64,000 nucleotides of DNA, taken from the IMG/VR virus record IMGVR_UViG_3300044712_001084, positions 10,006 to 74,005 of that record, one strand, 5' to 3'. The notes beneath the pieces were generated by a model. That model worked only from the letters and a program-made list of their open reading frames with translations, did no database searches and had not been told where the DNA came from. Position numbers and translations under genes: made by a program. Below are positions 6,839-62,744 of the stretch, one piece after another; within the stretch, counting starts at the first letter, position 1; each line of letters begins with the position of its first letter. Source of the DNA: a virus.

Positions 6839-8008
6839 TCATCTGATATAGAGTCCATTGGAAAGTTGGACGCGTCTGCCAGCGTGCCAGCGGAATCCGC
6901 TTCCTTTACCACCCTTGAGTCTTATTACCTCTTTACGCTCTGAGCCTCCAGCGCGCACGCCAAACTTCATAGAGCCGTCTTTGTAATACACTTTGACAAT
7001 CGTGGCTTTACTCTCGTCAACGACCTCGAACTGGTCGTTGATGTAGATAATCCGCTCAATATCGCTAGCGCTTGCCTCCTTGGCGCTCGTTGGCGTAGAC
7101 GGCTGCACTAGAGGATATATAGCATTGATTTGTCGGTATAATTCCTTCCACACATAATCAACCTCGTGCATATGACCGCTATAGTCTAGCCGGGCAATCT
7201 CAGCTAACGTCTCGTTGATAGCCAGTGAGCTATATGGATCAGCCTGATAGTATGACCTGCTATATGCCGTCACACCATCTTTGGTGCGTAATTCCTCGGC
7301 ATTATCCTCGATGTAGCGCATAATGACGTAGGATTGGTACTTATTTTCATAATCGGCATTACGCAAATTGCCGTCAGGCTTCATAATATATTCCAGCCTG
7401 GGCACACCTTTATCCATCTGCTCACGCATAATATTATCTATATCATACTTATCACGAGTATACTGCTCACTGAACATTTGCCATTTATCGTGCATGACTT
7501 CGTGAGCCAGTACAGTCTTGGATATTTGATTATCCTCATTGGTATTATTATTACGTTGGAATGCTTCGTCATATAATCTTATATGCCTATCTATAGGACT
7601 ATAATCTCCAGCAGCCTTCCATTTTACGTCACCGACTTGGAAAGGATATCCAACACCCTCGTAAGATATTAGAGCGGCATCATAACCCAAGCGCTCTGCT
7701 AAATGAGGAATTTGATCACGGAATGCCTCAACACGTTCTCTATGCTCTCTAGATAATCGATGTAGCGCAGCACGCTTGGCAGCCGTCTTATCAGCGAACT
7801 TTGGATCAGCTTCAATAGCGGCTGCTCGTAAACCAATGCGCGCATGGCCGCCACCTTTAGCAGAGCCGCCACGCAAGCCTGGTCTGCCTTTATGACCGTA
7901 ATTACCAGAGGTGGGCCCACCTTTGAGTCGGATAACTGACTTGGGTGTATGCAGCCAGTTCTCCCATTCAAAATCATCCAATAAATCTATATCTAGGTTA
8001 GTTGCCAT
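6839..8008 (-). CDS. motif-tagged zincin metallopeptidase
   Basis: N-terminal IRLKGG..SGNYGHKGRPG..GGS cassette; HEVMH (HExxH) and NETLAE; degenerate second cassette at the C-terminus. Confidence 0.7.
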   Translation of the reverse strand: MATNLDIDLLDDFEWENWLHTPKSVIRLKGGPTSGNYGHKGRPGLRGGSAKGGGHARIGLRAAAIEADPKFADKTAAKRAALHRLSREHRERVEAFRDQIPHLAERLGYDAALISYEGVGYPFQVGDVKWKAAGDYSPIDRHIRLYDEAFQRNNNTNEDNQISKTVLAHEVMHDKWQMFSEQYTRDKYDIDNIMREQMDKGVPRLEYIMKPDGNLRNADYENKYQSYVIMRYIEDNAEELRTKDGVTAYSRSYYQADPYSSLAINETLAEIARLDYSGHMHEVDYVWKELYRQINAIYPLVQPSTPTSAKEASASDIERIIYINDQFEVVDESKATIVKVYYKDGSMKFGVRAGGSERKEVIRLKGGKGSGFRWHAGRRVQLSNGLYIR

Positions 8009-9527
8009 AATCCCAATCCTCTATATAAAAATCCATAGTATCGTCAGTGTTCAGCGTCACCACCTCTCCAATATCATCTGAAAATGTAATAGGTGGCGCC
8101 ACTCCAGCATCTCTGGGCAATATCCATACATCTTCCGCTTTCACAGTTCTAGATAGCACCAATCCAGTCAACCGTCTCGATTTATTACTGGCGAATAAGT
8201 AGGCTCTACCTCTATTATTAGAGAACGATGATAATCCATAAACTTTAGCAGTCACGTGTTTATCGGCATCTTCTATCGTTATACCAGCCTTCTCCAGCAT
8301 AGCGGTGCGTAATTTACCAGCATAACGTCCATTTACACCTCTATACATGACTACTTCTTCGCCATACAACTCTCTGAACAAGGCTTGATTATATTCCTGC
8401 CTAGCCTTGAAACCGGCAATCTGCCTATCCGTCAGTTGGACGTCAATCAAACCTTTAGGTTTATTCTTATTAGTCGTCAACGTGTTTATAGCAGCCCATT
8501 CATTATAAGCGCTGCCTGGCGACATAGTCCAATTTTCTTGCGAACCCATTACAAATAACATAGTTTCACGATCTGTCTTGGACTCTATATATTGCGCCAT
8601 AGCGTAATCACGCGTCAGATTGCCTTGCCCTCGAAACACGCGCTGACCCAAATGAAAATATGAAGCTGAATATGAATCACCTCCATAAAACTTAGCATAT
8701 TTGCGCTCATTAGCAAGTAGATACTGATGTAAATCCTCGATATATGGGTCATCTTCCGCTAACTGCGTGACTATAGCGCTAGATGGCGCAGAGCCGCCAA
8801 CCTTACCAGGACGTCCTGCGTGGTCAAAATTACCGCTGCCTTCTCCACCTTTGAGTCGGATAGCGCCACGCTCTTTCTTCACCTCGCCATTATTATACAG
8901 GCTCTTTATATAGTCATAGAATTTGCCTGGATTGCTGTAACCCATAGCCTTTATAGCCGTGCGAACAGCTTGCTGCGTGGACACGATACCTGTTTTGGGT
9001 GATAGAGCGTAATCACTGGTATGTAAGCGTAATTGATTCAAACCAAATCTACGCTCCCATTGAAAATACTGGCTGCCACCTCTCGAATAGATCATATAAT
9101 CAAACTCTGCTTCAGACATCTTCAGCAAAGGCTGTAATTCATTCCATCCGATTAGATTGGCGGCTGGGTGCTCAGCTGCATAACCTTTCAACGCGTGTAA
9201 TAGATAGCCCACCGACATCTTATCTTGCGCAGATGCCTTTGGAATATCTGGCCCAGGCTCGTTTATAGAGGCAATAAAATCCTCTCTTGATACATCACCC
9301 CATACGATATTCTGTATGCGTTTATTGACATGATCCGCATAGCCTCTAATATCAGGCTGCTGAAGTCTGGCGTAAGTGGCAATATTGACGTTCTGATCCC
9401 AAGCCAAGCGCTGGTCACTTGTAAGAGCCGCATCACCATCGACCACGCTACCACCAACTTGGCCTGGTCTACCAGCGTGACCGAAGTTTCCAGAGCCTTT
9501 ACCACCCTTCAATCTAATAACTGCCAT
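7998..9527 (-). CDS. motif-tagged two-module protein with C-terminal ADP-ribosyltransferase-like domain
   Basis: two GGxGSGNFxHAGRPGxVGGS cassettes; VMYRGV ... LSSFS ... GEVV (R-S-E ART pattern). Confidence 0.65.
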   Translation of the reverse strand: MAVIRLKGGKGSGNFGHAGRPGQVGGSVVDGDAALTSDQRLAWDQNVNIATYARLQQPDIRGYADHVNKRIQNIVWGDVSREDFIASINEPGPDIPKASAQDKMSVGYLLHALKGYAAEHPAANLIGWNELQPLLKMSEAEFDYMIYSRGGSQYFQWERRFGLNQLRLHTSDYALSPKTGIVSTQQAVRTAIKAMGYSNPGKFYDYIKSLYNNGEVKKERGAIRLKGGEGSGNFDHAGRPGKVGGSAPSSAIVTQLAEDDPYIEDLHQYLLANERKYAKFYGGDSYSASYFHLGQRVFRGQGNLTRDYAMAQYIESKTDRETMLFVMGSQENWTMSPGSAYNEWAAINTLTTNKNKPKGLIDVQLTDRQIAGFKARQEYNQALFRELYGEEVVMYRGVNGRYAGKLRTAMLEKAGITIEDADKHVTAKVYGLSSFSNNRGRAYLFASNKSRRLTGLVLSRTVKAEDVWILPRDAGVAPPITFSDDIGEVVTLNTDDTMDFYIEDWDYGN

Positions 9528-9530
9528 GGT

Positions 9531-10298
9531 TCACTTCCCTAATAAAGATTTGAGTTGCGTGAGGTCTTTTGCCTGGTCTAACTGGCGCTGCTCCATCCTA
9601 GCTAGAATATCAGCCACATAATCAGGCCTGGACTGATATGCGATATACTGGCGCAGAGCCGTCTCGTCACCGTTGAAAACAACGATATCCATTGGACGTT
9701 CAGCGCAACCTGGTAATATAAACCTATCCGCTGATATCTGCCACAACTGACAAGTGCCAACGGTATTGCCTGGGTTCCAGGACGTAGCTCTAATCTTGCT
9801 ATGTAAATCAGCCCATGACAATCTGGTCGTGTTAGCAGGATAGAATGTATAAGGATATCTGGCCCAGGTATAACGCTCGCTGGGCCACTTGGATAGATAG
9901 GATATGAACCAACCTCCAGTATAGATATCGAATGACCAGGCAGCCGTCACCATATCCACAAATTTCTGTACATCAGCCGCATACGTAACAGCTGCGTAAT
10001 TCTCTGGAGGCTTGACCTCGATATCCAGCATAACGTGCGTAGCCTCTTTGGGCATATGCGCACGCAACCAGTCAAAATTAGCTCTTGCGTTTACCCAGGG
10101 ATTGTATACAAAATAGGGCCAGCGCAAGAAGTTAGCAGCCTGGTCCCACTGGGCTTGAAAATTGGCATCGAGGTGATGCCCACCGTTCATGTTATTGAGC
10201 CTGACGATTATGGCACGCACTCCAGCATCCCATAATATCTGCTCTTCAATGTCCAGGCTTCCTTCCCAAACGTCCACAGCTAGCGTATAAGTAAGCAT
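9531..10298 (-). CDS. endolysin, GH25 muramidase-like
   Basis: AVDVWEG N-terminus, PYFVY, LDIE (DxE), IYTGGW, LWQ. Confidence 0.75.
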   Translation of the reverse strand: MLTYTLAVDVWEGSLDIEEQILWDAGVRAIIVRLNNMNGGHHLDANFQAQWDQAANFLRWPYFVYNPWVNARANFDWLRAHMPKEATHVMLDIEVKPPENYAAVTYAADVQKFVDMVTAAWSFDIYTGGWFISYLSKWPSERYTWARYPYTFYPANTTRLSWADLHSKIRATSWNPGNTVGTCQLWQISADRFILPGCAERPMDIVVFNGDETALRQYIAYQSRPDYVADILARMEQRQLDQAKDLTQLKSLLGK

Positions 10299-10300
10299 AA

Positions 10301-11728
10301 TTACTTAGCTCCAATTGATCTACTTCCTAGCGTGTCTTTTTCCACGTGAATACCAAATTGCGTAAGGAATGGCCCACTAGATGGTGCTGTACTGGATGCG
10401 GCAATCCTCGTGACCTTGGCCAAAATACGTCCACCCATTTTCATGTTGGCATCCAATAGCGTGCCTATAGATGTAGTAATCTCTGACATATCGTCAGTAT
10501 TGGCAGGCACCGTTGTCTCAGCGCTAATGGTCACCGTATCCGAGTAAATAGGGAATGGCGCGGCAATAGCTGGTCCAGTGGTATATGAATACTCTATTTG
10601 CCATTTTACATAACGATCTGACGCATCCGATACACCAGTCACCCAGTGAATATGGAATTCTATAGAGCTTCCTTCTTTATAAGCGTGCGACACCTCTTGC
10701 GCGTCAAATTCTACCGATTGATTGGTATTGAATCTGTAGGCATAAAACCCATTCGGCATTGCTAATAATGCCGCGCCAGTCACTCTTGCCGAGGATATAG
10801 AACACGCGATATCATCGAAGACTGTCGCAGAGCCGTTGAATTTGATCGTACCGTCAGTCTCTATCGTGGTATTATTCGTGCTATCACCTAATACCAGTGG
10901 ATAGGTGAGCATAGGTTCCCAGTCTGGATAGCCTCCAACGACCTTTAGCACCTCACCCGTTGAACCTATAGGAAGCCGCGTAGGACTGGATAGAACTGAC
11001 GATAGCGTGAATTCACGCGTATCCGAGTATAAGGGCCACCCACCGTTCAATTGCGCTGTTACGACATAGCGTCCGTCAGTTGGCGCGTTATCTAAGTAAG
11101 AAGATGTCCACTGCTGCTCGTGGCCAGCTGATGAGTCAGTTCCGAAGCGCGCACTTTTGCTGCCAAGAACAGTTCCAGTCAAGGACTCTTTGCGCACGCG
11201 CAACGTGTAATCCTTATACACGCCATAAGCAATACCGCTGACCCATATATTCCAAGTGACGGTAATCGAGGTGCCAACGTCCACCGTCAAATCCATATCC
11301 GCAATTATCACTTCGCTCGTGGAATTGTGTATAAGCTCTAATATATATGGCGTAGGATTGGATACCACTGTATTGGGCCCAAGGTAAATCATATCACCTT
11401 CAGCCGTCATAGGGTTCGGCATAATCCCTATGTTATCAATAGCCTCTAGAGCCTCTTGAACAGTATCGTCAGCGACATCAAAGACTTTCGTGAAACTGGA
11501 CGTGTCCACCGATATAATCGAGGCAGGATGACCTGATGTAGTGAGACCACTCAACGCTGAATGCGCGATAGCCTCAGCGCTCTGCGACACGTCAACCCAT
11601 GAAGCACCGTTGAACCAATACAACACTGGTTCGTCTGTCAGAAACCACGTACCTTCTCTGACAGTCGTAAATGCCAGCATTTCTACCTCTGTACCAATAT
11701 ATAACGGTGCTCCATGAGTCTTGACCAT
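10301..11728 (-). CDS. putative virion structural protein (fibre/decoration-like)
   Basis: Ser/Thr-rich beta segments; PMTAEGDMIY...TRLPIGSTGEVLKV fibre-type segment. Confidence 0.55.
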   Translation of the reverse strand: MVKTHGAPLYIGTEVEMLAFTTVREGTWFLTDEPVLYWFNGASWVDVSQSAEAIAHSALSGLTTSGHPASIISVDTSSFTKVFDVADDTVQEALEAIDNIGIMPNPMTAEGDMIYLGPNTVVSNPTPYILELIHNSTSEVIIADMDLTVDVGTSITVTWNIWVSGIAYGVYKDYTLRVRKESLTGTVLGSKSARFGTDSSAGHEQQWTSSYLDNAPTDGRYVVTAQLNGGWPLYSDTREFTLSSVLSSPTRLPIGSTGEVLKVVGGYPDWEPMLTYPLVLGDSTNNTTIETDGTIKFNGSATVFDDIACSISSARVTGAALLAMPNGFYAYRFNTNQSVEFDAQEVSHAYKEGSSIEFHIHWVTGVSDASDRYVKWQIEYSYTTGPAIAAPFPIYSDTVTISAETTVPANTDDMSEITTSIGTLLDANMKMGGRILAKVTRIAASSTAPSSGPFLTQFGIHVEKDTLGSRSIGAK

Positions 11729-11730
11729 TT

Positions 11731-11946
11731 CTAATCCTTGCTGCGCAACTGAAACTTCTTTTTACGAGGGCCACTGGGTGTCGTAATGGCCGCCAACGCA
11801 GCCCTCCAGGCATCATCCAAGGCTTCGTCCTTTACTTCCTCAGTCCAGATACTGGCACCAGTCGGTTTACCATTATCATCCACGATCTGGCCGTCCGGCT
11901 GCGTCTCTGGCTCAACGGTTTTGGCGCTGCTTAGCTTTACTCTCAT
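11731..11946 (-). CDS. small hypothetical protein
   Basis: ATG at 11946 with GGAGAGG SD; fills the gap between neighbours. Confidence 0.55.
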   Translation of the reverse strand: MRVKLSSAKTVEPETQPDGQIVDDNGKPTGASIWTEEVKDEALDDAWRAALAAITTPSGPRKKKFQLRSKD

Positions 11947-13168
11947 AGTATGCCTCTCCAACTCGATAGCTCAATGAATCATCTGCCATATACTTTATGG
12001 CTTGCCAACTGGAATTCAGCATGGACTCTTTACCTAATTTGAAACCATCTGGACCTACGAATGCCGCAATCTCCCAAGAGTGCTGTAAGGAATCCAACGT
12101 GGATCTAGGCATAGCCGTATTATAGCGCTGGCTCCACATACGCTCCAATTTGGCTTGAGCGCCAATCAGATACGTCTCGTGCCTGAAATCGAAGCCCATC
12201 CTGGCCCACGCGTACCCACCTACGTCAATATTGGCGTAAATAGTGACCTCTTTGATGCCAGCTTCTTTATAAGTCACTTCACTGGATTGATACCAGGCAG
12301 AGCCGAACCCAGTACCTTGCTGACTACCATTCAGAGTGAATAGGTCGTGATGAACTTCCTTCAACTTTACATAAATAGAGCGTGTAAAGCCACCGACATA
12401 ACTACCATCGGCAGTTCGCACAATACCTTCCACTTCAACCGTTGGACCTCTAGACCCATCCTTCAACGTTATCGATTGAACTATACCACGCGTACCCGTA
12501 GTTTCATCCACAGTATTCCAAGCTTCTTCTACAAAATCCTCGATGGGCTTGGTATATCCTGCTTTTGTCCAGGCTTCTAATACGTCTCTATCAGTAACAC
12601 TGAGCGGTCCTCGCAATTGATTTTTCACCTCGGAAGCCAGAGGCTCAACCTTCAGACCTTTCTTTGGATTGATAGCCTTATCAGCTGGCTTGGGATAATC
12701 CATAGTAGGCTCAGTCATACGCGGCTTGGGGTGTGACCATAGGTCCCATTCCTCCATAGCTCTTTGCCGCGCCAGCCCTGCCTCGAATGATGCTGTCACA
12801 TTACCCCAACCTTGCTCACGCGATATGCGATATTGTAAATCATATGCCTCTTGGCCGCGCAACTCACGCGTAGCGTTATCGCGCAAATCCGCATCCCATA
12901 TCTCATACTGGCGCTGTCTCGCATCACGCCCATAATCCTCTGCCATGGTACGTGACCAACCAGCACGCATCTGGCGCGTGACCTCGGTGGAGCGTGCTCG
13001 TTCTCCAGCATTCAATCTATCGCGTCTGGCTTGCTGCTCTGGCGTCAATTCTCTGGGCGCTGAACCACGTGCTGGCGCTGAACCTCCGACACGCCCAGGT
13101 CTGCCAGCGTGACCAAAGTTCCCAGAATTATCATTGCCTTCTTTCCAAGTGACCACTATCTTACCCAT
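11912..13168 (-). CDS. motif-tagged GNAT-fold acetyltransferase-like protein
   Basis: start MGKIVVTWKEG followed by SGNFGHAGRPGRVGGS; QQGTGFGS (acetyl-CoA loop) and GGYAWARMGF. Confidence 0.7.
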   Translation of the reverse strand: MGKIVVTWKEGNDNSGNFGHAGRPGRVGGSAPARGSAPRELTPEQQARRDRLNAGERARSTEVTRQMRAGWSRTMAEDYGRDARQRQYEIWDADLRDNATRELRGQEAYDLQYRISREQGWGNVTASFEAGLARQRAMEEWDLWSHPKPRMTEPTMDYPKPADKAINPKKGLKVEPLASEVKNQLRGPLSVTDRDVLEAWTKAGYTKPIEDFVEEAWNTVDETTGTRGIVQSITLKDGSRGPTVEVEGIVRTADGSYVGGFTRSIYVKLKEVHHDLFTLNGSQQGTGFGSAWYQSSEVTYKEAGIKEVTIYANIDVGGYAWARMGFDFRHETYLIGAQAKLERMWSQRYNTAMPRSTLDSLQHSWEIAAFVGPDGFKLGKESMLNSSWQAIKYMADDSLSYRVGEAYYESKAKQRQNR

Positions 13169-13853: not shown

Positions 13854-13871
13854 ATGGACCTCTACATATAA

Positions 13872-13901
13872 ATTCACGTCAGTATATTTACTGACGTGAA
13901 T
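13872..13901. terminator. 13-bp-stem hairpin (terminator or operator)
   Basis: ATTCACGTCAGTA / TACTGACGTGAAT. Confidence 0.5.
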
Positions 13902-13925
13902 GTTTACCAGGAATAATGACAATTA

Positions 13926-15119: not shown

Positions 15120-15905
15120 TTACTGAGGCAGTTTTATCATCATACCTGCGAATATCGCACGCACTCGCTTGTAATCTACCTCTCCAAGCACAGTACGCAA
15201 ATCACGTAACAACGTGAATTCACCTCCATCACTATAATCATCTAGCGATGCGTTGCTCAGATGAAGGTTGCGTAAGAATATAAGGCTGGAATTGTATATG
15301 ATTGTCATGATGGGAACTGGTATACTAGCTAGCTGAGCAATCTGCGTTATCGCGTCCCGGCTGCGCTGCTCTCGACATAGCGAACTGTAAATGAGTTCTG
15401 ACACTTCATCCAAGATGATACAAGGTATAGATGGGAAGCGTTGCCGATTGTAATGCGTAAGATCCACCAATATAGCATCCTCGCATAGCTTGTCGAATGC
15501 CAGCGTGGATTGACAATCCTCTAGCCCATCCTCCAGTGAATCAACCTCGTCACTATCCTCTGACGGCTTGGCGAAGTCGTCTAGTAAGATCACGCGGCTC
15601 TCTTTAGTTGAATAGGTGCGGCATATATTATGGATCACAGTCGTGAAGTAATTATGCAGCGTGGATACACCTGGATTGAAATAGCGGCTGGAATGCTGGA
15701 TTTTCATCAAGGCTTCTTGAATCAAATCCTCTCTATCGTTGGGATCATAAATGCTAACTATGGCTTCAACTAGGTATTGAGATAATTCAACAATTCTAGC
15801 CATGATAGCAGGATTTTCAGATTGCTGCCAATCCAACACTAACTCGGTGACTCTAGCGTTGTCAAATATTAGAGCCGTTTTATCAGCGCGTAGTGTGCCA
15901 GACAT
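15120..15905 (-). CDS. sigma-70-like RNA polymerase sigma factor (candidate late sigma)
   Basis: region-2-like DREDLIQEALMKI...FNP...TLHNYFTTVIHN. Confidence 0.7.
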   Translation of the reverse strand: MSGTLRADKTALIFDNARVTELVLDWQQSENPAIMARIVELSQYLVEAIVSIYDPNDREDLIQEALMKIQHSSRYFNPGVSTLHNYFTTVIHNICRTYSTKESRVILLDDFAKPSEDSDEVDSLEDGLEDCQSTLAFDKLCEDAILVDLTHYNRQRFPSIPCIILDEVSELIYSSLCREQRSRDAITQIAQLASIPVPIMTIIYNSSLIFLRNLHLSNASLDDYSDGGEFTLLRDLRTVLGEVDYKRVRAIFAGMMIKLPQ

Positions 15906-17318: not shown

Positions 17319-17321
17319 GTT

Positions 17322-30852: not shown

Positions 30853-30886
30853 GTGGTTCATTATGGTAAATTCCAAGTTATTTCAG

Positions 30887-30959
30887 CACCCTCGGTGGGA
30901 TTCGAACCCACAACCGTCAGCTTAGAAGGCTGCTGCTCTATCCGTTGAGCTACAAGGGC
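30887..30959 (-). tRNA. tRNA-Arg(TCT)
   Basis: cloverleaf GCCCTTG..GCTC/GAGC..CT-TCT-AA..GTGGG-TTCGAAT-CCCAC..CGAGGGT; no encoded CCA. Confidence 0.9.
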
Positions 30960-31831: not shown

Positions 31832-31878
31832 CCATCCTTTCTGCTAATATAGTGGACCGTCACCATGACAATCCTGAA

Positions 31879-31950
31879 TGGGCCCAGATGGACTCGAACC
31901 ATCAACCAAACGATTATGAGACGCGTGCTCCGCCATTGAGCTATGGGCCC
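31879..31950 (-). tRNA. tRNA with CAT anticodon (Ile2 or Met), weak anticodon stem
   Basis: GGGCCCA/TGGGCCC acceptor, GCTC/GAGC D-stem, CT-CAT-AA loop, GATGG-TTCGAGT-CCATC T-arm. Confidence 0.8.
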
Positions 31951-31973
31951 AGCATTACCAGTAAACTTTACCG

Positions 31974-55073: not shown

Positions 55074-55075
55074 TG

Positions 55076-55912
55076 TCAAGCTCCGATATTCCAAAACACG
55101 ATTGGCGGCTTGAGGTCATGAACGTTGCGCGCTAGCCACGTAAATGCCTTGGCATCGTAGTACTCGTTGCATGGGAACGGTATCCACTCGTTGGCCACTT
55201 TATCCTTATATTCGTAATTCTCATCCACTAGCTGGACTTGAGCACCCACCAACCAGTTAGACAAGCGCTGAACGTCTTTGTATATCTGCTCGTGGCTACG
55301 CGTGTAACCAAGATGTAACACCAGTTTACCTCGATAGCTTAGCTGCATCAAGCCCTTATAAACGGCTGCGCCCAGAGTGCCAGAGGATATCGACACGACC
55401 CAAGTGCCACCACGCGTCAAGTGTTTGGGCGTGTAGCTAGTCAATTCCTCCACCGTGGCATCGATAGACTCAACCAATTTCAGTCCATTAGGCATCATGA
55501 TACTATCCGCACCGTGACGCTCACGCAAGATGCGCTTGGCCTGGTTGTATAGCACTGCGCTCATACCAGCCTTCATGGGATACAAGGCTGCGCCAAACGA
55601 TTGGCACATTAGCTGATTCTTGCGCAATCCCACGTCACTCTTTAGCACTGGATAAAAGTCCACGCATGGCAATCCTAGCTCTTTGCACACATACGATACA
55701 CCCCAGCCAGCCTTGGAATGTTGCGTATCCATAACACCGATCACGACTGGGCCGCATTCCTCTTTTACAGAGGCTAGATATCTAGCCACGCCACGTATTT
55801 TTGAAAATCCTGGCCCAGGCTCTGGACTGGACAAATCCTCTCGCTTGACGTGAACCGGGCAACCATCCACGTCATACAATTCCCAAGGTGTGTTATCGCA
55901 CGTTAGCGGCAT
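55076..55912 (-). CDS. PLP-dependent enzyme (fold type II)
   Basis: VKREDL...SKIRG, SISSGT, YDAK, FWNIG. Confidence 0.8.
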   Translation of the reverse strand: MPLTCDNTPWELYDVDGCPVHVKREDLSSPEPGPGFSKIRGVARYLASVKEECGPVVIGVMDTQHSKAGWGVSYVCKELGLPCVDFYPVLKSDVGLRKNQLMCQSFGAALYPMKAGMSAVLYNQAKRILRERHGADSIMMPNGLKLVESIDATVEELTSYTPKHLTRGGTWVVSISSGTLGAAVYKGLMQLSYRGKLVLHLGYTRSHEQIYKDVQRLSNWLVGAQVQLVDENYEYKDKVANEWIPFPCNEYYDAKAFTWLARNVHDLKPPIVFWNIGA

Positions 55913-57312
55913 TATATACCTGTTACATCGTATCCCAAGCTGGTCCAGTACTCGATATCCGTCATAAAGTCCGGATTCCCAAAATGATAATCTTGTATGC
56001 GCCCAACCTGGTCGGGCATGAGGCATGAGTCCACGTTGTACCAATTCGTATCATCACCCTCTAGCTGAATGCTTTTCAACTGCTTGGACTCTAGAGCCGT
56101 GGCCTGTAATAAGACCTCGTTATTACATGCCTTGGTTCCAAAATCTGCGCAGTACAGGCAGCCTTTACGATAGCAACCAGGCAATGGCTGGAATGGCTGC
56201 CCAGGCTCTTCACGGAAGTGAACTGGTACGCCACGACCATGGCATTGATCCGAGGTCGTGAAATAGGGTGCCAGGTTAGCGCCAGCCTTGCCGTTGTCAT
56301 AATACTCGTAACAAGTGGACATCGTGATGCCCGCTGCACGCGTGCGCTCTAATAAGGCATTGAGCCAGTCCACGCGCAAATCTTGCTGGATAGTGTACAC
56401 GCCGCCAATCGTTTGGTTGAATAAGGACTCGAAAGTGTCCACGTTCGGCAGCTTAGCCAAGCGCTCCAGCAATAACTTCCGATTGTTGAATACCTGCTCA
56501 GCGAATTTGAAGATTATATGCTTCAATCCAGCCTGGGCCGCCATGTCCACGAGGTCCAAAAGCTCTTTCAGAGTGACAATACCCGGCAGCACCGGATTGC
56601 ACTGGAATGACGTGTAGATGCCCTTGGCGCTCAAATCGCTGACAGCCTTTAGCACCTCGTCAATGGAGAATGAACCTGGAGACAGCTTACGATACGTGGA
56701 ATTATTCGAGGTGTTTACACTCCACTGCATGTAGCTGTATGGATTGGCCTGGAGCGCATCGACTGCCCATGACGGAGGAATTCTGCGCGATAGATAGAAG
56801 ATAGGCAGGTTATGATCCACGAACACCTGCGACAAACGCTGCGTCACGTTGTATTTATCCTCTAGTAATTGAAACGGCTCTGTGAAGCTAGACATGTACG
56901 CTGCGCCGCTAACAGTCATCTTTTCCACCTGCTTACGCATAAAGTCAGGGTAATCAGGATTGACGGTGGAAATGCCCGTAGCGCGATAGCCTCTGGTGCC
57001 ATGATCTACATAGCAGAATTTACAACCGATATGGCAGAACCCGCCATACGGTGTCGTCAAGAGGGCTTCGGTATAGCATGGACGTGGGCGCACCCGGCTG
57101 GGTTCGTGTTTGCTCTTATACCAACCGCGCACCGCTGGATTAGAGGAATTGACAATGTGGCGCATAGGTCTGGTGTATACTTTGAATGGCCTGAGTTGGC
57201 CTCCCTTGACCATAGCCAGCGGAATCATCTTGAACTCGCCGTTCTCATCCACTCCAGCGTCCACAGCCTGTTCCAACTCAAATTGCTTTTGCTTCTTAGG
57301 TTCGTCAGTCAT
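55912..57312 (-). CDS. radical SAM enzyme
   Basis: CHIGCKFCY (CxxxCxxC); additional C-terminal Cys cluster. Confidence 0.88.
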   Translation of the reverse strand: MTDEPKKQKQFELEQAVDAGVDENGEFKMIPLAMVKGGQLRPFKVYTRPMRHIVNSSNPAVRGWYKSKHEPSRVRPRPCYTEALLTTPYGGFCHIGCKFCYVDHGTRGYRATGISTVNPDYPDFMRKQVEKMTVSGAAYMSSFTEPFQLLEDKYNVTQRLSQVFVDHNLPIFYLSRRIPPSWAVDALQANPYSYMQWSVNTSNNSTYRKLSPGSFSIDEVLKAVSDLSAKGIYTSFQCNPVLPGIVTLKELLDLVDMAAQAGLKHIIFKFAEQVFNNRKLLLERLAKLPNVDTFESLFNQTIGGVYTIQQDLRVDWLNALLERTRAAGITMSTCYEYYDNGKAGANLAPYFTTSDQCHGRGVPVHFREEPGQPFQPLPGCYRKGCLYCADFGTKACNNEVLLQATALESKQLKSIQLEGDDTNWYNVDSCLMPDQVGRIQDYHFGNPDFMTDIEYWTSLGYDVTGI

Positions 57313-58111
57313 TATTCCTCCACAACTCATAATAAGGTGTAAGCCAATATTCCAGGCAACTAGCTAAGTCACCGCAACCGTGTAAACCATGCATAATTTC
57401 CAACGTATCGTTGCCTGGAGGATAGTGACCATTGACATGCGACTTATACTTGCACGCAATCGTTTCAAGCTCTTGTATATTTACCTTGCGGTCAGCGTAT
57501 GGCGGAGCCACATAATTATCAAAATCGCTCTGTAACACGGCAAACGTCTCGTGAAGTTCATCTCTCGTTATCGGATGGTGCTGATCACCAAAACGAATAA
57601 GGGCTGCGCCCTTTACTGGGTCACGATATACGCCAATCTCTGCGTTGGAAAAGTCCACAGAACGTTGCAGAACACGCTCTGTCATATCCGCTATTTTCCA
57701 CGCTATCCATGGCCCAAATCCTCGGAATGACTGAGCGGCAGCCGATATCGACTGGAAATCATTGCCATTCGTCATAGCGTCCACCACTTTTTCAGGACTA
57801 CCATAGTTATGCAGGCCTGAAACGGTATCAATAAAGGCTTGGCCACGCATATGTCTGCGCTCGTGACCTCTGGGTGCGTGGGCCATATCCTCAGCATATA
57901 GAGCCTTATAAAAGCTATTCCCAGAACGCTCTGCGCAACGACACGCCACGCCAGCGCTGTAAAATATCCAGTAAGCCAGCATAAAGCGCTTCATAGTGGA
58001 CTCAGGCCAATCAGAGTTGGCTAGAATTACGTATAATGGATCCAAATCATAGGTATCCAATAATTGCGCACCAAAAGATTGATAATCCACCACCTCATAG
58101 GAATAGCCCAT
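57305..58111 (-). CDS. amino acid:DNA transferase (aGPT-PPase clade-2-like)
   Basis: DLDPLY, YWIFY, RGHERRHMRG, GFGPWIAWKIADM, QELETIACKYKSH. Confidence 0.85.
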   Translation of the reverse strand: MGYSYEVVDYQSFGAQLLDTYDLDPLYVILANSDWPESTMKRFMLAYWIFYSAGVACRCAERSGNSFYKALYAEDMAHAPRGHERRHMRGQAFIDTVSGLHNYGSPEKVVDAMTNGNDFQSISAAAQSFRGFGPWIAWKIADMTERVLQRSVDFSNAEIGVYRDPVKGAALIRFGDQHHPITRDELHETFAVLQSDFDNYVAPPYADRKVNIQELETIACKYKSHVNGHYPPGNDTLEIMHGLHGCGDLASCLEYWLTPYYELWRNND

Positions 58112-58121
58112 AAATACCTCA

Positions 58122-58140
58122 CTTATATTACTAAACTTGT
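58122..58140 (-). promoter_or_regulatory. conserved phage promoter-like motif, copy 9
   Basis: ACAAGTTTAGTAATATAAG between the capsid terminator and the AADT SD. Confidence 0.7.
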
Positions 58141-58148
58141 GTATAAAC

Positions 58149-58180
58149 GACTAACAGCGCCATAATTAGCGCTGTTAGTC
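58149..58180 (-). terminator. terminator after the major capsid gene
   Basis: 12-bp stem GACTAACAGCGC / GCGCTGTTAGTC. Confidence 0.7.
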
Positions 58181-58219
58181 CTTCGGGAGAAGAGGTGCAA
58201 AACCGAACTGGCTGGAGGA

Positions 58220-59659
58220 TTACACGTCAGGCGCTGCGAGGTGCAGCGGTGCCCCACCGGGCATATACTCCGGCTGGAACGGATCACCAGTGAGAGGTTG
58301 GCGCATGCGGGTCACGCACACGTCCTGGATGCGGGCCTGGGCCCATGGCGCAGAAAGGTAAATTTCAGGGCTGGTGCCCATCTGGAACTTGACGCACCAG
58401 TTACCCTCTTTACCTTTCATGGCGAAGCGGCCACCCTGTTCAACGCGAACAGAGAAGCCGGGCATGGCCTTCTGGATGCGGCTCTGGTACAGACTCAAAT
58501 CGAGGTACTCACCATAGAGCACGTCCATAGAGCCAATGCGCCGGGTCAGCAGATAGATATCCGTGCACCAGGTCGTAGCGGCATTCTTGGAAATGTCCAT
58601 GGCGTCATCCACGATGATGGGCAATCTGCGGCCAGACTTCAGCTGGATGTAGCCAACAGCCGTGGTGCCATCGTACAGAGGGCCAGCGTTGAGGCTGCGC
58701 CGTGATTCACGCGCCTGGGCACGCAGAGCCTGGTCTGAAATGTTGGTGGCATCCGTCACACCGCAAATGGTGTAGCAGGAATAGGCATCCAGAAGCTTGG
58801 TGGCCATGAACCGACTGGTGAGCAGAATCATATCCGCTTCGGCAATCGGGCCAATAGCGCTGGCACGCCACTCAATCTCAGTAACCAGTTCATCCAGATA
58901 ATCGAAGATGTTGCCGAGGTTATTCACCTCACCATCCAGATTATCGTGGGCCCAGTCGATGATCGAAGCGCCAATCTGCGGGCACGCTTCGCCATTATCA
59001 TTGAGATAGGTGGTGCGCACCAGACTTTCCAGGCCATCCATTTCATTGGCGTTGTTGTGGCTGCCGTGGATCTGACCACGCTGAATGTCCTGCTTCATGA
59101 CGTTCATGATGCCGTTCATCTGCCACTCAACGTCATCCATAATCTGAACACCGTTCAGCCGATAGCGCGGAGCCGTCTCGCAGCGCTCTTGCACGGTGGT
59201 GTGCGGGTCAAGCCCTTCACCAGCGCGATGATACCACGAGGTGTGGGTCAGTTCATAACCGCAAACAGCATATTCCCAGCCGTTGGGGTCAGCGCACGGA
59301 GCGCCAGCGCCAGAGGTAGGGCTGCCACCCACGGTGCCCTGCGGGCCATACCAGGGGATGAAATCAACGCGTCTGCGATAGAACTTGTTGGGCCGCCAGC
59401 CCAGCCAGTTCATCAGGCCAACCGTCTGGACCTGCAAACCGAAGATGTCTCCGGGTGAGCAAGGGTCAAAGATGGAATTGCGGCCATAAATCGAGGAAGT
59501 GCCCAGGGTGATGGAGGCTTCTTTGAAAGCCACTGCCTGGCCACGCGCTGAGCCCTGCTGGGCCTGAACAATCGCATTACCAATATAATTACCCAGGGTG
59601 GCCAGTTCCTTATTCCGGACGCCGCCAACCGTGCGGGTTCTACCATTCTTTACTTTCAC
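58220..59659 (-). CDS. major capsid protein
   Basis: follows protease-scaffold; strong codon bias; own terminator; IHGS....EMDGL HK97-fold-like segment. Confidence 0.8.
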   Translation of the reverse strand: MKVKNGRTRTVGGVRNKELATLGNYIGNAIVQAQQGSARGQAVAFKEASITLGTSSIYGRNSIFDPCSPGDIFGLQVQTVGLMNWLGWRPNKFYRRRVDFIPWYGPQGTVGGSPTSGAGAPCADPNGWEYAVCGYELTHTSWYHRAGEGLDPHTTVQERCETAPRYRLNGVQIMDDVEWQMNGIMNVMKQDIQRGQIHGSHNNANEMDGLESLVRTTYLNDNGEACPQIGASIIDWAHDNLDGEVNNLGNIFDYLDELVTEIEWRASAIGPIAEADMILLTSRFMATKLLDAYSCYTICGVTDATNISDQALRAQARESRRSLNAGPLYDGTTAVGYIQLKSGRRLPIIVDDAMDISKNAATTWCTDIYLLTRRIGSMDVLYGEYLDLSLYQSRIQKAMPGFSVRVEQGGRFAMKGKEGNWCVKFQMGTSPEIYLSAPWAQARIQDVCVTRMRQPLTGDPFQPEYMPGGAPLHLAAPDV

Positions 59660-60876
59660 TTCCCACCTCCAAGGATAAATTCGGTCATCGAACTGGCGGC
59701 ATTGCCTTCGATGTCGAGGATAGCTTCTTCTTTCTCTTCGGCCATATCCTCGTCATCTTCCTCATCATCCATGTCATCCGTGAACGGCTTGGCAGCCTTC
59801 TTGGACCCAGGCTTGCACGCGGCATCCTGCTTGAAGCGCATGATGCGCAGCTTGCCGTTGCGCGGAGCGGCTTCCACGACTTCTTTCAGCCGCTGGCGCT
59901 CGTCAGTTTCCAGAGCCTCTTTCAGCGCAGTGACCATATCGGTCAGCGCGTCCAGTTTCTCGGTCAGCGCATCGATGCCGGGCACTTCCTTGAGATTGAC
60001 CCCATCCTCGGCAGACAGATCAATTTCAACCTGGCTCAAGACCTCTTTCAAGGCTTCCGGCAGCAACGCGGTGAGCCGCTGATCAACGATATCGCTGAAT
60101 TGCTTCAGCACGTCCGTGTCCAGCGTGAACGTCTGGGTGTCTTCCTCGCCACTATCCTCGCCAAACTCTTTCAGCAGGACAGCGTCAGGGATGCCATCAA
60201 ACTCTTTCAGCTGGGCGTCCGATAGCTGGGCCAGCCGGGCATCAATCATAGCCTCCGGCACACCAGCCTCTTTCAAACGCTTGCGCAGTTCTTCCTTGGT
60301 CATAATTTTGACATCCTCCAATAAAGGTTTTGAAGCTGAGACACCCGTGAACGGAACGCATGGGATATCGGTGACCGTGACATCGAATGTCCTCGTTTTG
60401 CGAAAGTGCAGTTCCTTTAGCACTCCCTTGTATGAGATATGTACTTGCTTACAAACCGGGCAACGGAAGCCAACCTGCATGTGTTCCTTGGAGACCACCA
60501 AGCCAGAGCCGCACGATGGACAATCACCTTTAGCCTCTATAACGTAAAAGCCGCGGCTGACGCGCCACTTGCCATCGTTCTTGGCCAACCAATTCTCGCA
60601 TACCCAGTTTGAAAATGGATCATCATACGAGTGGCCTGTATCCACTGCGAATATGCCAACACGCTCCATCTTCTCAACTTTTCCAATACCTAGTTTACCG
60701 CTATGAAATACACGGAATTCTGGGTACTCGCCAGTTACGCGTGCCATCTCAGCGTCATAGTCCATAGCTTCCGTGTCAAACGTCTCGTTGCTACGATCTT
60801 TGATGGCAGCGGTGGAGACGGCTCTGATTAGCCAGCGACCATCGGCTTCTTTATGAACAGTGACTCTGGGCTTCAT
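59656..60876 (-). CDS. prohead protease-scaffold fusion with Zn-ribbon insert
   Basis: DRSNE, VFH, VSRGF, FDVTVTDIP (HK97-type protease); CPSC/CPVC insert; acidic coiled-coil C-terminus. Confidence 0.75.
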   Translation of the reverse strand: MKPRVTVHKEADGRWLIRAVSTAAIKDRSNETFDTEAMDYDAEMARVTGEYPEFRVFHSGKLGIGKVEKMERVGIFAVDTGHSYDDPFSNWVCENWLAKNDGKWRVSRGFYVIEAKGDCPSCGSGLVVSKEHMQVGFRCPVCKQVHISYKGVLKELHFRKTRTFDVTVTDIPCVPFTGVSASKPLLEDVKIMTKEELRKRLKEAGVPEAMIDARLAQLSDAQLKEFDGIPDAVLLKEFGEDSGEEDTQTFTLDTDVLKQFSDIVDQRLTALLPEALKEVLSQVEIDLSAEDGVNLKEVPGIDALTEKLDALTDMVTALKEALETDERQRLKEVVEAAPRNGKLRIMRFKQDAACKPGSKKAAKPFTDDMDDEEDDEDMAEEKEEAILDIEGNAASSMTEFILGGGK

Positions 60877-60898
60877 GATAATCCTCTCTAGATATGTA

Positions 60899-62095
60899 CT
60901 ACACCATACCGATAAACTGCGGCACATCCATATCCAGCGGCAGCTTGCGGAATTCCTCGTGACCTTGGCGGTCAGGACAATCTTCGCAATGCTCTGCGTG
61001 GGTCATATGCCATACAGCCTTTATCATCTTGAACTTGTCGTTGCGGCCAACCTCGGATAATTCCCAACGACACTTACAATTTACCAAGCACTCAGTGCTA
61101 CCGTCACCTGGTATCCAAGGCAAGGGTGGTATAGAGCCTTTCTTGCGCCGCGTACCGCCAGCGAACGGTCCTGCCTGCAGTAAGGCAGCCGTATAACGAG
61201 AGGCATTGCCATACATTCTAGCTCTGGCTTGTAGAGCCTCTAGCGACACGTCCTCACGATTAGTGGCTATATACTCGGCAAATCCGTGTAGATAACGATA
61301 CTGCGATTTGACCTCTGCGCCAATGCGTCCCCAATCGCTTTTTGATAGGTCTGCCCAAGAGCCTTTACCGATAGCGCCAGTTGCCGTGTGAAGGCTCTTT
61401 ATCATGCCCTTCATACCCTCTTCCCACTCACCCAAGGATATATCACCATTGTACAGCCGTTCTGTCAAGGCATCCGAGTCACCCTGGAATAGCGCAACCC
61501 GCTCAATCACTAGCGCTGACTTAGAATTGTCATCCATGAGTGGTACTTCTTTCTCCACCACGTCACCGGATAAAGGATAGTGACTAATTTCATCACCCCA
61601 AAATAGCGCTAACTCATTGAAGGTCTTGGGATACGTGACAGAACTGCTAGGTAACTCGATAGATAAATCATCGGTATAACCTAATGTCATATGCGGAGTG
61701 AAACCATGATTCTGAGTCAATTCCATAGCTAGCTCTGCACGTAAGGTCATTAGCAACGCTTGTCTGAAGGCTGGCAACGCTGCGCTGTCAAATAACGCCA
61801 CCACTGGAGAGGAATTATCATTATCAGACGTGGCTGCGAATAGTGCGAAGCCATTGAACTCACCGGATATACCAGCGTGCCTAGCGCCAAACGAGGTCAA
61901 TGCTTGTGACACGGCATCTTTATCTAATTGAGTGACGTCACCTAGATAAACCAAGGTAATGTGAGGATTAGCTGCCAACGCTTTACTAGCCACGTTAGCG
62001 CCCAACTCAGAACCATTCAAATCGAATGCCACAATAGCACTCGATTTGTAGGACTCTTTGACAATCGGGCTGCGCTGGACAAATCGCAGTTTCAT
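60899..62095 (-). CDS. 2H phosphoesterase fused to a MuF-like head morphogenesis domain
   Basis: HITLVY and HMTLGY (two HxT motifs); PGDGSTECLVNCKC and HCEDC. Confidence 0.75.
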   Translation of the reverse strand: MKLRFVQRSPIVKESYKSSAIVAFDLNGSELGANVASKALAANPHITLVYLGDVTQLDKDAVSQALTSFGARHAGISGEFNGFALFAATSDNDNSSPVVALFDSAALPAFRQALLMTLRAELAMELTQNHGFTPHMTLGYTDDLSIELPSSSVTYPKTFNELALFWGDEISHYPLSGDVVEKEVPLMDDNSKSALVIERVALFQGDSDALTERLYNGDISLGEWEEGMKGMIKSLHTATGAIGKGSWADLSKSDWGRIGAEVKSQYRYLHGFAEYIATNREDVSLEALQARARMYGNASRYTAALLQAGPFAGGTRRKKGSIPPLPWIPGDGSTECLVNCKCRWELSEVGRNDKFKMIKAVWHMTHAEHCEDCPDRQGHEEFRKLPLDMDVPQFIGMV

Positions 62096-62102
62096 TTAGC
62101 CT

Positions 62103-62744
62103 CTAGTCGTAGATAGAATAATCTCTGCCAGCTTGACGACCACCTGTGCGCCGCGTGCGCTTGGGTTTTGCGTATAACTTATCTTTATACAAATCAATCG
62201 ACTCTGCGGCATAGCGGGCAGCCGTCTCATAGCCATCCCAAGTAAATTCTCTGGGTGACCACAATACCTTATCAGAGCCTTTAGTAGCGGCAAATGATAC
62301 AGCCCACGCATTCTCAGAAAACACCAACGTAGCTTTGACGTCATTACGCGTCAACTCGTAAGCTGGCAGTTTGCCTTTAGTGGTATTGACCCAGTCACCG
62401 CCCAAATCCAGCTTACCCAAATCTGGCGCTGGTTTCAAGTCATCGAGGTACACGCGTTCATTTCCTTCGTCAATAACCATACGGCCACGATTATCGGCAT
62501 AAGGATGAACCAATGCGTAATACTTTTCAGCCTCTCGATCATAGAGCACTGAGCTAACTTCAACCTTGGTACCAGCTGCTATGGAACCCTTACGAGAACC
62601 CATAACAAACGTATCACCCTTCTTGACCTCTGGCTTCACAGAGCCACTGTCACTCGGTGCTGACCCACCAACCTCTCCGGGACGACCTTCGTGACCAAAA
62701 TTACCAGAACCTTCTCCACCTTTGAACCGCAAAGTAAGTTTCAT
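62103..62744 (-). CDS. motif-tagged hypothetical protein in the head module
   Basis: N-terminal LRFKGGEGSGNFGHEGRPGEVGGS; between portal and MuF. Confidence 0.75.
   Translation of the reverse strand: MKLTLRFKGGEGSGNFGHEGRPGEVGGSAPSDSGSVKPEVKKGDTFVMGSRKGSIAAGTKVEVSSVLYDREAEKYYALVHPYADNRGRMVIDEGNERVYLDDLKPAPDLGKLDLGGDWVNTTKGKLPAYELTRNDVKATLVFSENAWAVSFAATKGSDKVLWSPREFTWDGYETAARYAAESIDLYKDKLYAKPKRTRRTGGRQAGRDYSIYD

Follow-up and report, generated by a model that had tools for sequence, protein, structure and literature searches.

Within the window, a stretch of 64,000 nucleotides corresponding to bases 10006–74005 of the 74,005-bp virus record IMGVR_UViG_3300044712_001084, a glycine-rich peptide cassette (hereafter, the tag) is encoded six times, with five of the copies intact and one decayed, in four ORFs and always on the minus strand (Table 1); the six copies listed in a preliminary description of this DNA were all found. 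The virus record ends in 127-bp terminal repeats; the map is therefore circular, and the separation of roughly 50 kb previously placed between carriers and head genes is an artefact of the linear window. The full circular 74-kb genome holds two further intact copies just beyond the window. When the 213-aa carrier protein was used as a query against the genome, the other intact copies were recovered with E values of 6.5e-14 to 1.1e-6, excluding a chance origin. Ser codons switch between AGY and TCN among the copies of this genome, and third-codon identity is only 0.39, indicating that conservation lies in the peptide and not in the DNA.

The tag had been presented as one cassette of 25 aa. The element is real, but it is not a single unit: it consists of two parts that evolve differently, a lineage-specific leader of 5–10 residues whose last residue is fixed per lineage (K in the present phage) and a near-invariant, glycine-rich core of 20 residues, GG-x-GSG-N-F-G-H-x-GRPG-x-V-GGS. 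Five of the six carrier genes begin with Met, followed by a leader of 6–8 residues and then the tag. The 509-aa ORF comprises two tag-headed modules, while the remaining five carriers have one module each and can be regarded as "solo" versions of polyvalent proteins. The decayed copy retains its whole leader, EVIRLKGG, but its core is degenerate, and the reading frame stops 22 aa further on; this terminal tag, which no module follows, has kept its leader and lost its core.

Table 1. Tag copies, carrier genes and head genes of the phage (window coordinates unless marked as genome).
Feature	Position	Strand	Remarks
Tag copy	62640-62744	-	213-aa ORF, N terminus
Tag copy	13058-13162	-	442-aa ORF; variant VVTWK/EGNDNSGNFGH
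Tag copy	9426-9527	-	509-aa ORF, N terminus
Tag copy	8769-8873	-	509-aa ORF, residue ~220
Tag copy	7841-7945	-	389-aa ORF, residue ~25
Decayed in-frame tag copy	6833-6937	-	389-aa ORF, C terminus
Intact tag copies outside window	genome 7792-7896 and 8509-8613		N termini of 141-aa ORF, 237-aa HEYGH ORF
213-aa carrier	62103..62744	-	Leader MKLTLRFK, tag core, module of no recognised family
GNAT-fold carrier (442-aa ORF)	11912..13168	-	Longest ORF start 13240
Two-module carrier, 509 aa	7998..9527	-	Tag, unknown-family module, tag, ART-like module
HExxH carrier, 389 aa	6839..8008	-	24-aa N-terminal stretch, leader and tag, LAHEVMH module, decayed tag
Prohead serine protease-scaffold fusion, 423 aa	59656..60927	-	gp21/assemblin-fold N-domain, zinc ribbon, coiled coil, acidic tail
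Major capsid protein	58220..59659	-	Weak PHROG major head protein match
398-aa protein	60899..62095	-	2H/LigT phosphoesterase domain; C-terminal half with NCKCRW...CEDC cysteine motif
Presumed portal, C-terminal 419 aa (699 aa in total, crosses genome end)	62741..64000	-	From position and size only
Large terminase (TerL)	1734..3980	-	phrog_2 terminase large subunit, E 7e-28

The modules of the window carriers are variable and unrelated, as had been proposed, and at an E value of up to 0.1 the carriers show no dUTPase or other Pfam match. The 213-aa carrier, located between the presumed portal and the 2H-phosphoesterase gene, has one weak PHROG match (function unknown) and none in Pfam. For the 442-aa ORF, translation most likely starts at Met25 (position 13168), which is preceded by a GAGG ribosome-binding site, so that this tag, too, is N-terminal. 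In its AF2 model, tag residues 1–37 have pLDDT ~30 and the domain at residues 190–418 exceeds 85; every top Foldseek match of this domain is a GNAT acetyltransferase (5c82 at E 1e-5; range 1e-5 to 1e-3, probability 1.0), and a QGxGxG acetyl-CoA loop is conserved in the alignment of its family. The C-terminal domain is thus, as modeled, a GNAT fold with putative acetyltransferase activity, confirming by fold an earlier GNAT-like call for a module that lacks any Pfam match. The ART-like assignment in the 509-aa carrier receives support at the level of a lead: the ESM Atlas comparison led to DRAT/ART clusters (score 0.91, TM 0.52) and also to a viral cluster with MuF in 99% and DRAT in 37% of its members. 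The HExxH module of the 389-aa carrier, whose gene has an 11-nt overlap with that of the 509-aa protein, clusters with 11 others; the motif is present in 11 of the 12, in line with the initial call, and one relative has a Zn_peptidase_2 match below cut-off. Together with the 237-aa HEYGH ORF, the phage genome encodes two HExxH modules.

The head genes adjoining the 213-aa carrier include a prohead protease fused to a scaffold. The protease N-domain was predicted with pLDDT >90 (AF2 with 33 homologues) and aligns with T4 gp21 (5jbl) at a VIA-align Z of 10.6 and an rmsd of 3.2 Å over 133 residues, the next matches being 35 herpesvirus protease entries; His58 and Ser107-R-G-F are invariant. A scaffold block, PR.GKLR[IV].R[FY]K (RIMRFK at 59830–59847), lies in a disordered stretch, with its R kept in 109 and its K in 114 of 120. 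The capsid protein has a variable N-terminal segment of ~45 aa that ends in a conserved VAFK/EA (slashes mark candidate cut positions; K46/E47, about 59519–59524). K46 is kept in 116/120 homologues and E47 in 113/120, with the upstream part varying in both sequence and length, and VAFK/EA is a putative maturation site. The neighboring 398-aa gene, previously called MuF, instead encodes a 2H phosphoesterase (Pfam 2_5_RNA_ligase2, E 1.1e-11), and its C-terminal half is matched neither by Pfam MuF nor by a MuF profile built here (an hhalign match of only 14 columns, E 0.013). PF04233 (Pfam MuF) has no match anywhere in the phage genome, carriers included, at an E value of up to 10. The presumed portal has no Pfam, PHROG or PDB sequence match. 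TerL lies downstream of the three-carrier cluster; a "TerS" placed on the other side of that cluster finds no support in Pfam or PHROG searches, and the region between it and TerL also contains GH25 lysozyme and fibre-like genes.

A profile search with the cassette retrieved 5005 protein clusters, with up to 10 copies per protein, and tabulation of downstream modules and gene neighborhoods yielded many modules and a linkage to MuF and portal genes. The element is portable across phages, as first suggested, and heads unrelated enzyme modules in thousands of uncultured phages. An alignment of 703 copies shows about 100% invariance at 12 positions of the core; for the residue preceding GG, identity is 83% among the tags of one protein and 27% over the whole set. 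The core is near neutral and has a single Arg, and 45% of copies carry E at +4. Asn-dependent self-cleavage at N-F was rejected, as only 72% of copies have N there, the others having H, F, D or Y. The median tag-to-tag spacing is 221 aa, at least 45 aa follow the tag in 244/248 cases, and 90 of 190 tag proteins have a tag within their first 40 residues. N-terminal tags always have at least five leader residues and never begin MGG. Strict clustering of the modules left 355/750 as singletons. A relative (L027) encodes a 5-tag polyprotein of 1228 aa at the equivalent place, directly upstream of TerL, and the comparison reveals that modules fuse and split at tags; internal copies do punctuate polyproteins, as anticipated.

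Head-gene linkage was likewise borne out, through MuF, portal and prohead protease. Among 49 tag-bearing viral records, 40 have Pfam MuF, on the same strand and mostly 0.1–6 kb away, and 13 of 19 bacterial genomes have a tag no more than 3.3 kb from MuF. Candidate tag-bearing prophages of cultured hosts are those of Clostridiales bacterium CCNA10 (AP018533.1, around 1.708–1.712 Mb; order portal-Nudix-tag-ART-like-tag) and of Oxalobacter paraformigenes HOxBLS (NZ_KI392031.1, around 876–883 kb; a tag protein of 1961 aa). DUF2213 is found in 31/49 records as compared to Peptidase_S78_2 in 1/49; an XkdF-type protease (PF14550), limited to 1/49 records, was rejected as the common partner. Fusions of portal, tag and module account for 29 of 89 loci, with the tag at the portal C terminus in one large lineage, and MuF and tags share one ORF at 15 loci. 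Other tag phages encode DUF2213, DUF6260 and MuF proteins, to which the protease, capsid and 398-aa proteins of the present phage have no detectable homology. Searches of cultured phages by tblastn with the 35-aa tag and a 5-tag protein gave no match, probably owing to low-complexity masking, and no phage in culture could thus be recognized as a tag carrier; the cultured phage closest to the portal-fusion lineage, FP_Brigit, is free of tags over the 20 kb inspected. The tag profile matched no PDB chain at an E value of up to 10, dUTPases included, there is no tag model in Pfam, PHROGs or NCBIfam, and exact-string and keyword searches of the literature returned no paper describing it. The tag is thus undescribed in the literature, Pfam, NCBIfam and PDB entries searched.

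The pre-GG residue (K, D or L/A) follows the head lineage, and equivalent capsid and scaffold motifs are present in all three classes, although the loci are phylogenetically non-independent and this co-variation amounts to about three events. In the K class, which includes the present phage, tags read RLK/GG or RFK/GG, the capsid P-x-A-F-K/E and the scaffold R-[FY]-K/. D-class tags read x-D/GG, with RLD/GKS in the scaffold and RFD/SA in the capsid. In the L/A class, tags of the form R-x-[LA]/GG accompany [LF]R[SA]L/[SGA]P in the capsid and PR.[LA]/ in the scaffold. Pre-GG residues of other lineages are TL/GG, ER/GG, D/GG and N/GG, and a ubiquitin-tail or PLpro-like "RLKGG" site was dismissed as a general reading on these grounds. 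When a leader position matrix was scanned against the phage proteome, scaffold and capsid sites did not score above chance (the scaffold site ranked 12th, and shuffled proteomes scored higher), so that the argument for a cut site rests on positional conservation and not on motif score.

We favor the interpretation, with a probability of roughly 0.58, that the cassette is a two-part signal on capsid-internal cargo, in which the leader is both a prohead-protease site and a loading signal. The leader, often β-strand-like, would be a substrate of the assemblin-fold prohead protease that the phage itself encodes; as this protease is built into the procapsid via its scaffold part, the leader probably doubles as the loading signal. 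Cutting at K/GG in the K lineage would free each enzyme inside the capsid, to exit together with the DNA, and the core with a short G/S/P spacer would stay on the module as a new flexible N terminus. Modules could be supplied as portal fusions, MuF fusions, polyprotein strings or, as in this phage, single genes, and the predicted cargo here would comprise the GNAT, ART-like and HExxH modules along with unknowns. Cleavage, packaging and ejection, and any role of the core, are what we infer from the patterns above. Complex prediction of the tag with the protease domain, the capsid protein or the C-terminal half of the 398-aa protein gave an ipSAE of 0.00, which weighs neither way. Against the cargo-signal interpretation, portal and MuF fusions require no loading signal, and most carriers of this phage adjoin lysis and fibre-like genes instead of the capsid gene.

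The tag might alternatively be an inter-module processing site only and not contribute to head loading. Cutting would then take place in the producing cell or following injection, and the enzyme would be either a polyprotein-borne peptidase (an HExxH zincin, termed "MPTase" by Iyer et al. 2017) or a protease of the host. We consider this unlikely, even though HExxH occurs 100 times in the 190 tag proteins as compared to about 9 expected (70 proteins carry one), two such modules are encoded in this genome, and MPTase processing of polyvalent proteins has been proposed (Iyer et al. 2017, PMC5512222). The HExxH modules form several unrelated BLAST families, and in two phages rated complete, L015 (13 tags) and L029 (12 tags), the examined tag ORFs are without HExxH; one zincin family was discarded as the common processing enzyme for these reasons. 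Furthermore, single-module genes need no processing site yet retain leader and tag, and a host protease cannot explain why the pre-GG residue tracks the phage head lineage.

The capsid and scaffold sites have no core, indicating that the protease does not need one, and a protease-site model therefore leaves the most conserved part of the tag unexplained. That the core is near-invariant across phages with dissimilar capsid, protease and MuF sequences suggests, at the level of sequence comparison, a constraint beyond those recognized. One tentative and rather doubtful possibility is that the core is a universal transferable handle, docking proteins to a shared component of portal-bearing tailed phages (candidates are the packaged DNA and the interior of portal or capsid) for head retention and ejection; it would then do for phages what the cargo-loading peptide does for encapsulins, operating across head lineages with no detectable sequence similarity. 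Less probable still is a core that acts as a phosphate- or nucleic-acid-binding arm, tethering modules to the packaged DNA so that cargo is kept with the genome and leaves with it, a proposal compatible with the leader as protease site. Packaged DNA is the one component common to all tag phages, and retention of the core across phages whose head proteins have no detectable sequence similarity does point to a universal partner. The core also resembles dUTPase motif V, a flexible phosphate-binding arm (the E. coli Dut end ...GEGGFGHSGRQ and the tag GSGNFGH[AS]GRPG are identical at 7/11 positions), and its GRP is reminiscent of the AT-hook core. However, the dUTPase likeness is short, glycine-rich and statistically unsupported, given that the tag profile matched no PDB chain, and a near-neutral core with a single Arg is unlike DNA-binding hooks. 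Carriers as trimeric dUTPases were rejected, the resemblance being limited to this local stretch. Finally, the cassette could be a passive flexible linker, or a DNA-level recombination joint easing domain shuffling, with no recognition function. Predicted disorder of the tag (AF2) and its location exactly at module borders, where modules fuse and split, are consistent with such a role, which is nonetheless highly improbable: invariance of 12 positions in about 700 copies is far beyond the needs of a linker, the low third-codon identity and Ser codon switching leave no shared DNA to recombine, and the tag is kept at the extreme N terminus of single-module genes.

If the cargo-signal interpretation is correct, the rule of leader, GG and core would flag thousands of head-carried, injected phage proteins and provide a catalogue of early host-takeover and anti-defence enzymes, mostly of no known family. 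The cleavage specificity of prohead proteases would become readable directly from genome sequence, and the tag could serve as a portable device for loading foreign proteins into capsids.

Several known systems offer partial parallels. Encapsulin cargo-loading peptides are usually C-terminal and uncleaved, with proven shell binding. The tag is similarly short and conserved, is joined to diverse enzymes through a flexible G/P/S linker and is putatively directed to the interior of an HK97-fold shell; the motifs differ, and for the tag shell binding is hypothetical. A match to Pfam Linocin_M18 was obtained for the capsid protein of one phage with tags. In T4, the internal proteins IPI–III and Alt bear capsid targeting sequences or propeptides cut by the prohead protease gp21, a signal of ~10 residues confined to T4-like phages. 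As in T4, a short N-terminal peptide heads putative cargo proteins that are otherwise unrelated, among them an ADP-ribosyltransferase (in this phage an ART-like module), and the gene beside that of the capsid protein encodes a prohead protease with the gp21 fold; the candidate cut site may likewise resemble those of capsid and scaffold, with the caveat of the matrix scan. In contrast to T4, a 20-residue core is common to phages with unrelated head-protein sequences, is repeated up to 10 times per polyprotein and probably stays on the cargo. By eye, the tag bears no likeness to the T4 signal (MK.Y.EF..E, cut after L/I-x-E), and it is at most an analogue of the T4 capsid targeting sequence, not a member. 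Loading order of the P1 Dar proteins depends on specific partner proteins, and we know of no motif that DarA, DarB or DdrB has in common with the tag. These P1 proteins are proteolytically processed, head-packed and injected anti-restriction proteins (summarised in PMC5512222), a route inferred for the tag modules as well.

MuF polymorphic toxins of temperate phages (Jamet et al. 2017, PMC5576092) also place variable toxic or enzymatic modules on a head-associated carrier, and tag genes are neighbors of MuF or form fusions with it. There, MuF is the covalently attached N-terminal part of a single toxin and an immunity gene follows, whereas in tag phages MuF is often a separate gene or itself a tag-headed module, and the window carriers have no MuF domain (PF04233). 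The phage polyvalent proteins of Iyer, Burroughs, Anand, de Souza and Aravind (2017, PMC5512222), the processing of which was assigned to MPTase, have a similar domain repertoire (ART, 2H, zincin, zeta-toxin kinase, GNAT and LPD1), MuF and portal fusions, a late-gene location and predicted delivery with the DNA. That paper contains neither "glycine" nor "linker" and describes no conserved junction motif. As in polyvalent proteins, at least two unrelated domains are combined in a single polypeptide in the 509-aa ORF, with relatives reaching 9–10 tag-headed modules; as for location among late or virion genes, one carrier lies between portal and protease and the others upstream of TerL. Unlike polyvalent proteins, the version in this phage is mostly split into single genes, each keeping its tag.

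All six tags attributed to this phage in the preliminary description proved real and lay on the minus strand; the tag combines a lineage-specific leader with a near-invariant glycine-rich core starting with GG. With the 213-aa carrier (i.e., tag-bearing ORF) as query, the other intact copies were recovered from the genome at E values of 6.5e-14 to 1.1e-6, ruling out chance. The IMG/VR virus record is 74,005 bp long, with the window covering bases 10006-74005, and has 127-bp direct terminal repeats at its ends, and the map is therefore circular. Two more intact tags, both N-terminal, lie just beyond the window, bringing the genome to seven intact tags and a decayed one, spread over six carrier genes. 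At the end of the 389-aa ORF, the tag with nothing behind it has kept its leader and lost its core. With the start of the 442-aa ORF placed at Met25 from ribosome-binding sites, five of six carriers open with Met, followed by a leader of 6-8 residues and then the tag. Where copies have the same residue, their third codon positions were 39% identical, and serine codons alternated between AGY and TCN, which shows that selection acts on the peptide; codon comparison gave no sign of gene conversion or a DNA-level repeat among the copies in this genome.

A profile from seven tag copies, run against 1.84 billion cluster representatives (E up to 1e-3), matched 5005 proteins, the best being 1000-3000 aa long with up to 10 copies. 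In 703 aligned copies from 190 proteins, a sample biased towards multi-copy proteins and drawn with an anchor pattern that failed to catch 7% of profile hits, the core read GG-x-GSG-[N/H]-[F/H/Y/W]-G-H-x-GR-P-G-x-[V/R/I]-GGS, with 12 positions ~100% invariant and a short A/S-P-G/S-rich spacer after it. Tags are predicted to be disordered (AF2) and are spaced at a median of 221 aa; at least 45 residues lie downstream of 244 of 248 tags in 101 genomic loci. The residue directly before GG falls into K, L/A, R, D and N classes and is 83% identical within a protein and 27% overall, with neighbouring leader positions at 19-32% within a protein. N-terminal tags always keep at least five leader residues, commonly beta-like MKIVLK/GG (slash before GG), and never start with MGG.

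The residue before GG tracks head lineage: in three lineages a conserved motif at the end of the variable capsid-protein N terminus finishes with it, and it recurs in the scaffold of all three. In the K class, that of this phage, the leader is [IL]R[LF]K/GG or TWK/EG, the capsid protein carries P-x-A-[FLYM]-K/E (K 116/120, E 113/120) and a disordered stretch of the scaffold carries LR[IV].R[FY]K/ (R 109/120, K 114/120). The corresponding motifs are x-D/GG, [TR]RFD/SA and phi-R-L-D/GKS in the D class, and [RK]-x-[LA]/GG, [LF]R[SA]L/[SGA]P and PR.[LA]/ in the L/A class. This apparent match of leader, capsid propeptide and scaffold, drawn from sequence comparison, is new here and, the compared loci being phylogenetically related, amounts to about three events. 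Assemblin-fold proteases prefer K, acidic or Ala/Leu residues at P1 (HK97, T4 and phiKZ, herpesviruses). The 423-aa product encoded upstream of the capsid gene is a prohead protease fused to scaffold, as judged from its predicted fold (AF2, 33 homologues; pLDDT above 90 for residues 1-170). Its top structural match was T4 gp21 (Z 10.6, rmsd 3.2 Å over 133 aligned residues), with 35 herpesvirus assemblin entries ranking next, and His58 and Ser107 are invariant; this predicted protease fold is likewise a new result.

L027, a relative whose TerL is 51% identical to that of this phage, encodes a five-tag, 1228-aa polyprotein at the equivalent place upstream of TerL, indicating that genes fuse and split at tags, and the 509-aa and 389-aa carriers accordingly look like a recent split of one polyprotein. 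The "broken-up" layout of single genes in this phage is new here. Methionine aminopeptidase alone could expose a GG N terminus, yet single-module genes retain the leader, which argues that it is recognised and not merely removed. A leader matrix scan of this phage's proteome gave nothing above chance. Together, the lineage matches, the L027 polyprotein, the core-less terminal tag and the leaders of single genes support the leader as a putative prohead-protease site that probably also loads cargo. The core would be dispensable for cleavage, since capsid and scaffold sites lack it, and is near-invariant although the protease, capsid and MuF sequences of these phages show no detectable similarity. 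Its resemblance to dUTPase motif V (the E. coli Dut end is ...GEGGFGHSGRQ), which lacks statistical support, hints at a phosphate-binding arm.

Minus-strand genes follow one another around the circle as a sigma-factor-like gene, membrane proteins, an unassigned 253-aa ORF, the GNAT carrier, a 475-aa unknown, GH25 lysozyme, the 509-aa and 389-aa carriers, an SGNH-domain protein, TerL (phrog_2, E 7e-28), the 237-aa and 141-aa carriers, a 215-aa gene (methyltransferase-like by eye), a thymidylate-synthase-like gene, the presumed portal, the 213-aa carrier, the 2H-phosphoesterase protein, the protease-scaffold and the capsid protein. The 253-aa ORF had been called TerS, a label that found no support, and the neighbour called MuF is weakly labelled: Pfam gave its 2H domain only, PF04233 (MuF) had no match in the whole genome, and a custom MuF profile aligned over just 14 columns around NCKCRW. 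A low-complexity insertion of ~250 residues, rich in G/V/S/P, separates the two regions of TerL that match PHROGs, an N-terminal one (residues 27-204) and a C-terminal one (residues 455-739). Three ORFs that are unusual cargo for such a place lie directly downstream of the capsid gene; the 472-aa one contains CxxxCxxC and looks radical-SAM-like by eye.

Coordinates of features in this phage (window positions unless marked genome) and in compared loci
Feature	Position	Strand	Remark
213-aa carrier	62103-62744	-	
442-aa carrier	11912-13168	-	GNAT
509-aa carrier	7998-9527	-	
389-aa carrier	6839-8008	-	
Overlap of 509-aa and 389-aa carrier genes	7998-8008	-	11 nt; ATG within ...TATGGCAACTAA
141-aa carrier	genome 7471-7896		N-terminal intact tag; outside window
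237-aa carrier	genome 7906-8619		HEYGH; N-terminal intact tag; outside window
Large terminase (TerL)	1734-3980	-	
714-aa protein, GDSL/SGNH esterase domain	4125-6269	-	interleaved with carrier genes
GH25 lysozyme	9531-10298	-	interleaved with carrier genes
Sigma-70 region-2 protein	15120-15905	-	interleaved with carrier genes
tRNA-Arg(TCT) and tRNA-Met(CAT)	30886-30959 and 31878-31951	-	two tRNA genes
268-aa, 472-aa and 322-aa ORFs	55076-58111	-	
Capsid protein	58220-59659	-	
Protease-scaffold	59656-60927	-	
2H-phosphoesterase protein	60899-62095	-	
Clostridiales bacterium CCNA10 prophage portal fusion	L094:5193-8159		
Faecalibacterium phage FP_Brigit portal	L109:8989-11475		MG711465.1; cultured; 828 aa
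Capsid proteins of two L/A-class tag phages	L029:17477-18463 and L015:17253-18299		Pfam DUF6260

For one narrow tag pattern, 265 stretches were confirmed in IMG/VR; 25 came from GTDB genomes (Clostridia, Oxalobacter, Alphaproteobacteria, Eggerthellaceae, Elusimicrobiales, Omnitrophota and one archaeal MAG). Of 49 viral records that carry the tag, 40 had Pfam MuF, which shared the tag's strand and mostly lay 0.1-6 kb away from it; among 19 megabase-sized genomes of bacteria, 13 had MuF within 3.3 kb of the tag. DUF2213 followed MuF in 31 of the 49 records as the N-terminal domain of ~400-800-aa proteins, with a His...Ser-x-G-F motif by eye like that of this phage's protease; an XkdF-type protease occurred in one. 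The D-class tag protein is a portal fusion, in which portal, sometimes a Nudix domain, and then one to four tag-headed modules reach up to 2078 aa. Such fusions made up 29 of 89 tag loci, and MuF and tags shared one ORF in 15 of 89. As the portal C terminus faces the capsid interior, fused modules would sit in the head before any cleavage. The portal fusions and these linkage numbers are new here. One capsid protein of the L/A-class pair tabulated also matched Linocin_M18, the encapsulin shell family (30.3 bits; cut-off 24.3).

In the CCNA10 prophage fusion, the Nudix hydrolase domain (residues 567-664) joins the portal without an intervening tag, and a tag heads the ART-like module that comes next. 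A second tag, 14 residues from the C terminus, has an intact GRPG in two relatives and an altered form, GRSG or GVPG, in two. The GRPG tag is absent from the FP_Brigit portal, whose C-terminal extension contains "EADHPRDENGQF" and then a G/S-rich stretch; cargo proteins linked to portal or MuF may thus have a second type of junction motif.

Module diversity is high (by Pfam, ART families, zeta toxin, GNAT, DUF3626, DUF7178, 2H, topoisomerase I and LPD1), with 355 of 750 modules singletons under strict BLAST clustering. Among the modules proposed from the window, GNAT was confirmed by fold, HExxH is kept in 11 of 12 related modules, and the ART-like assignment stands as a lead.

The tag is absent from Pfam, NCBIfam and PDB, and from PHROGs as a named function, and exact-string searches of the literature for its motif returned no paper. 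Phage polyvalent proteins were described without any junction motif (Iyer et al. 2017, PMC5512222). The tag system belongs among these proteins and MuF-linked effectors, and would work in the manner of T4 capsid-targeting propeptides.
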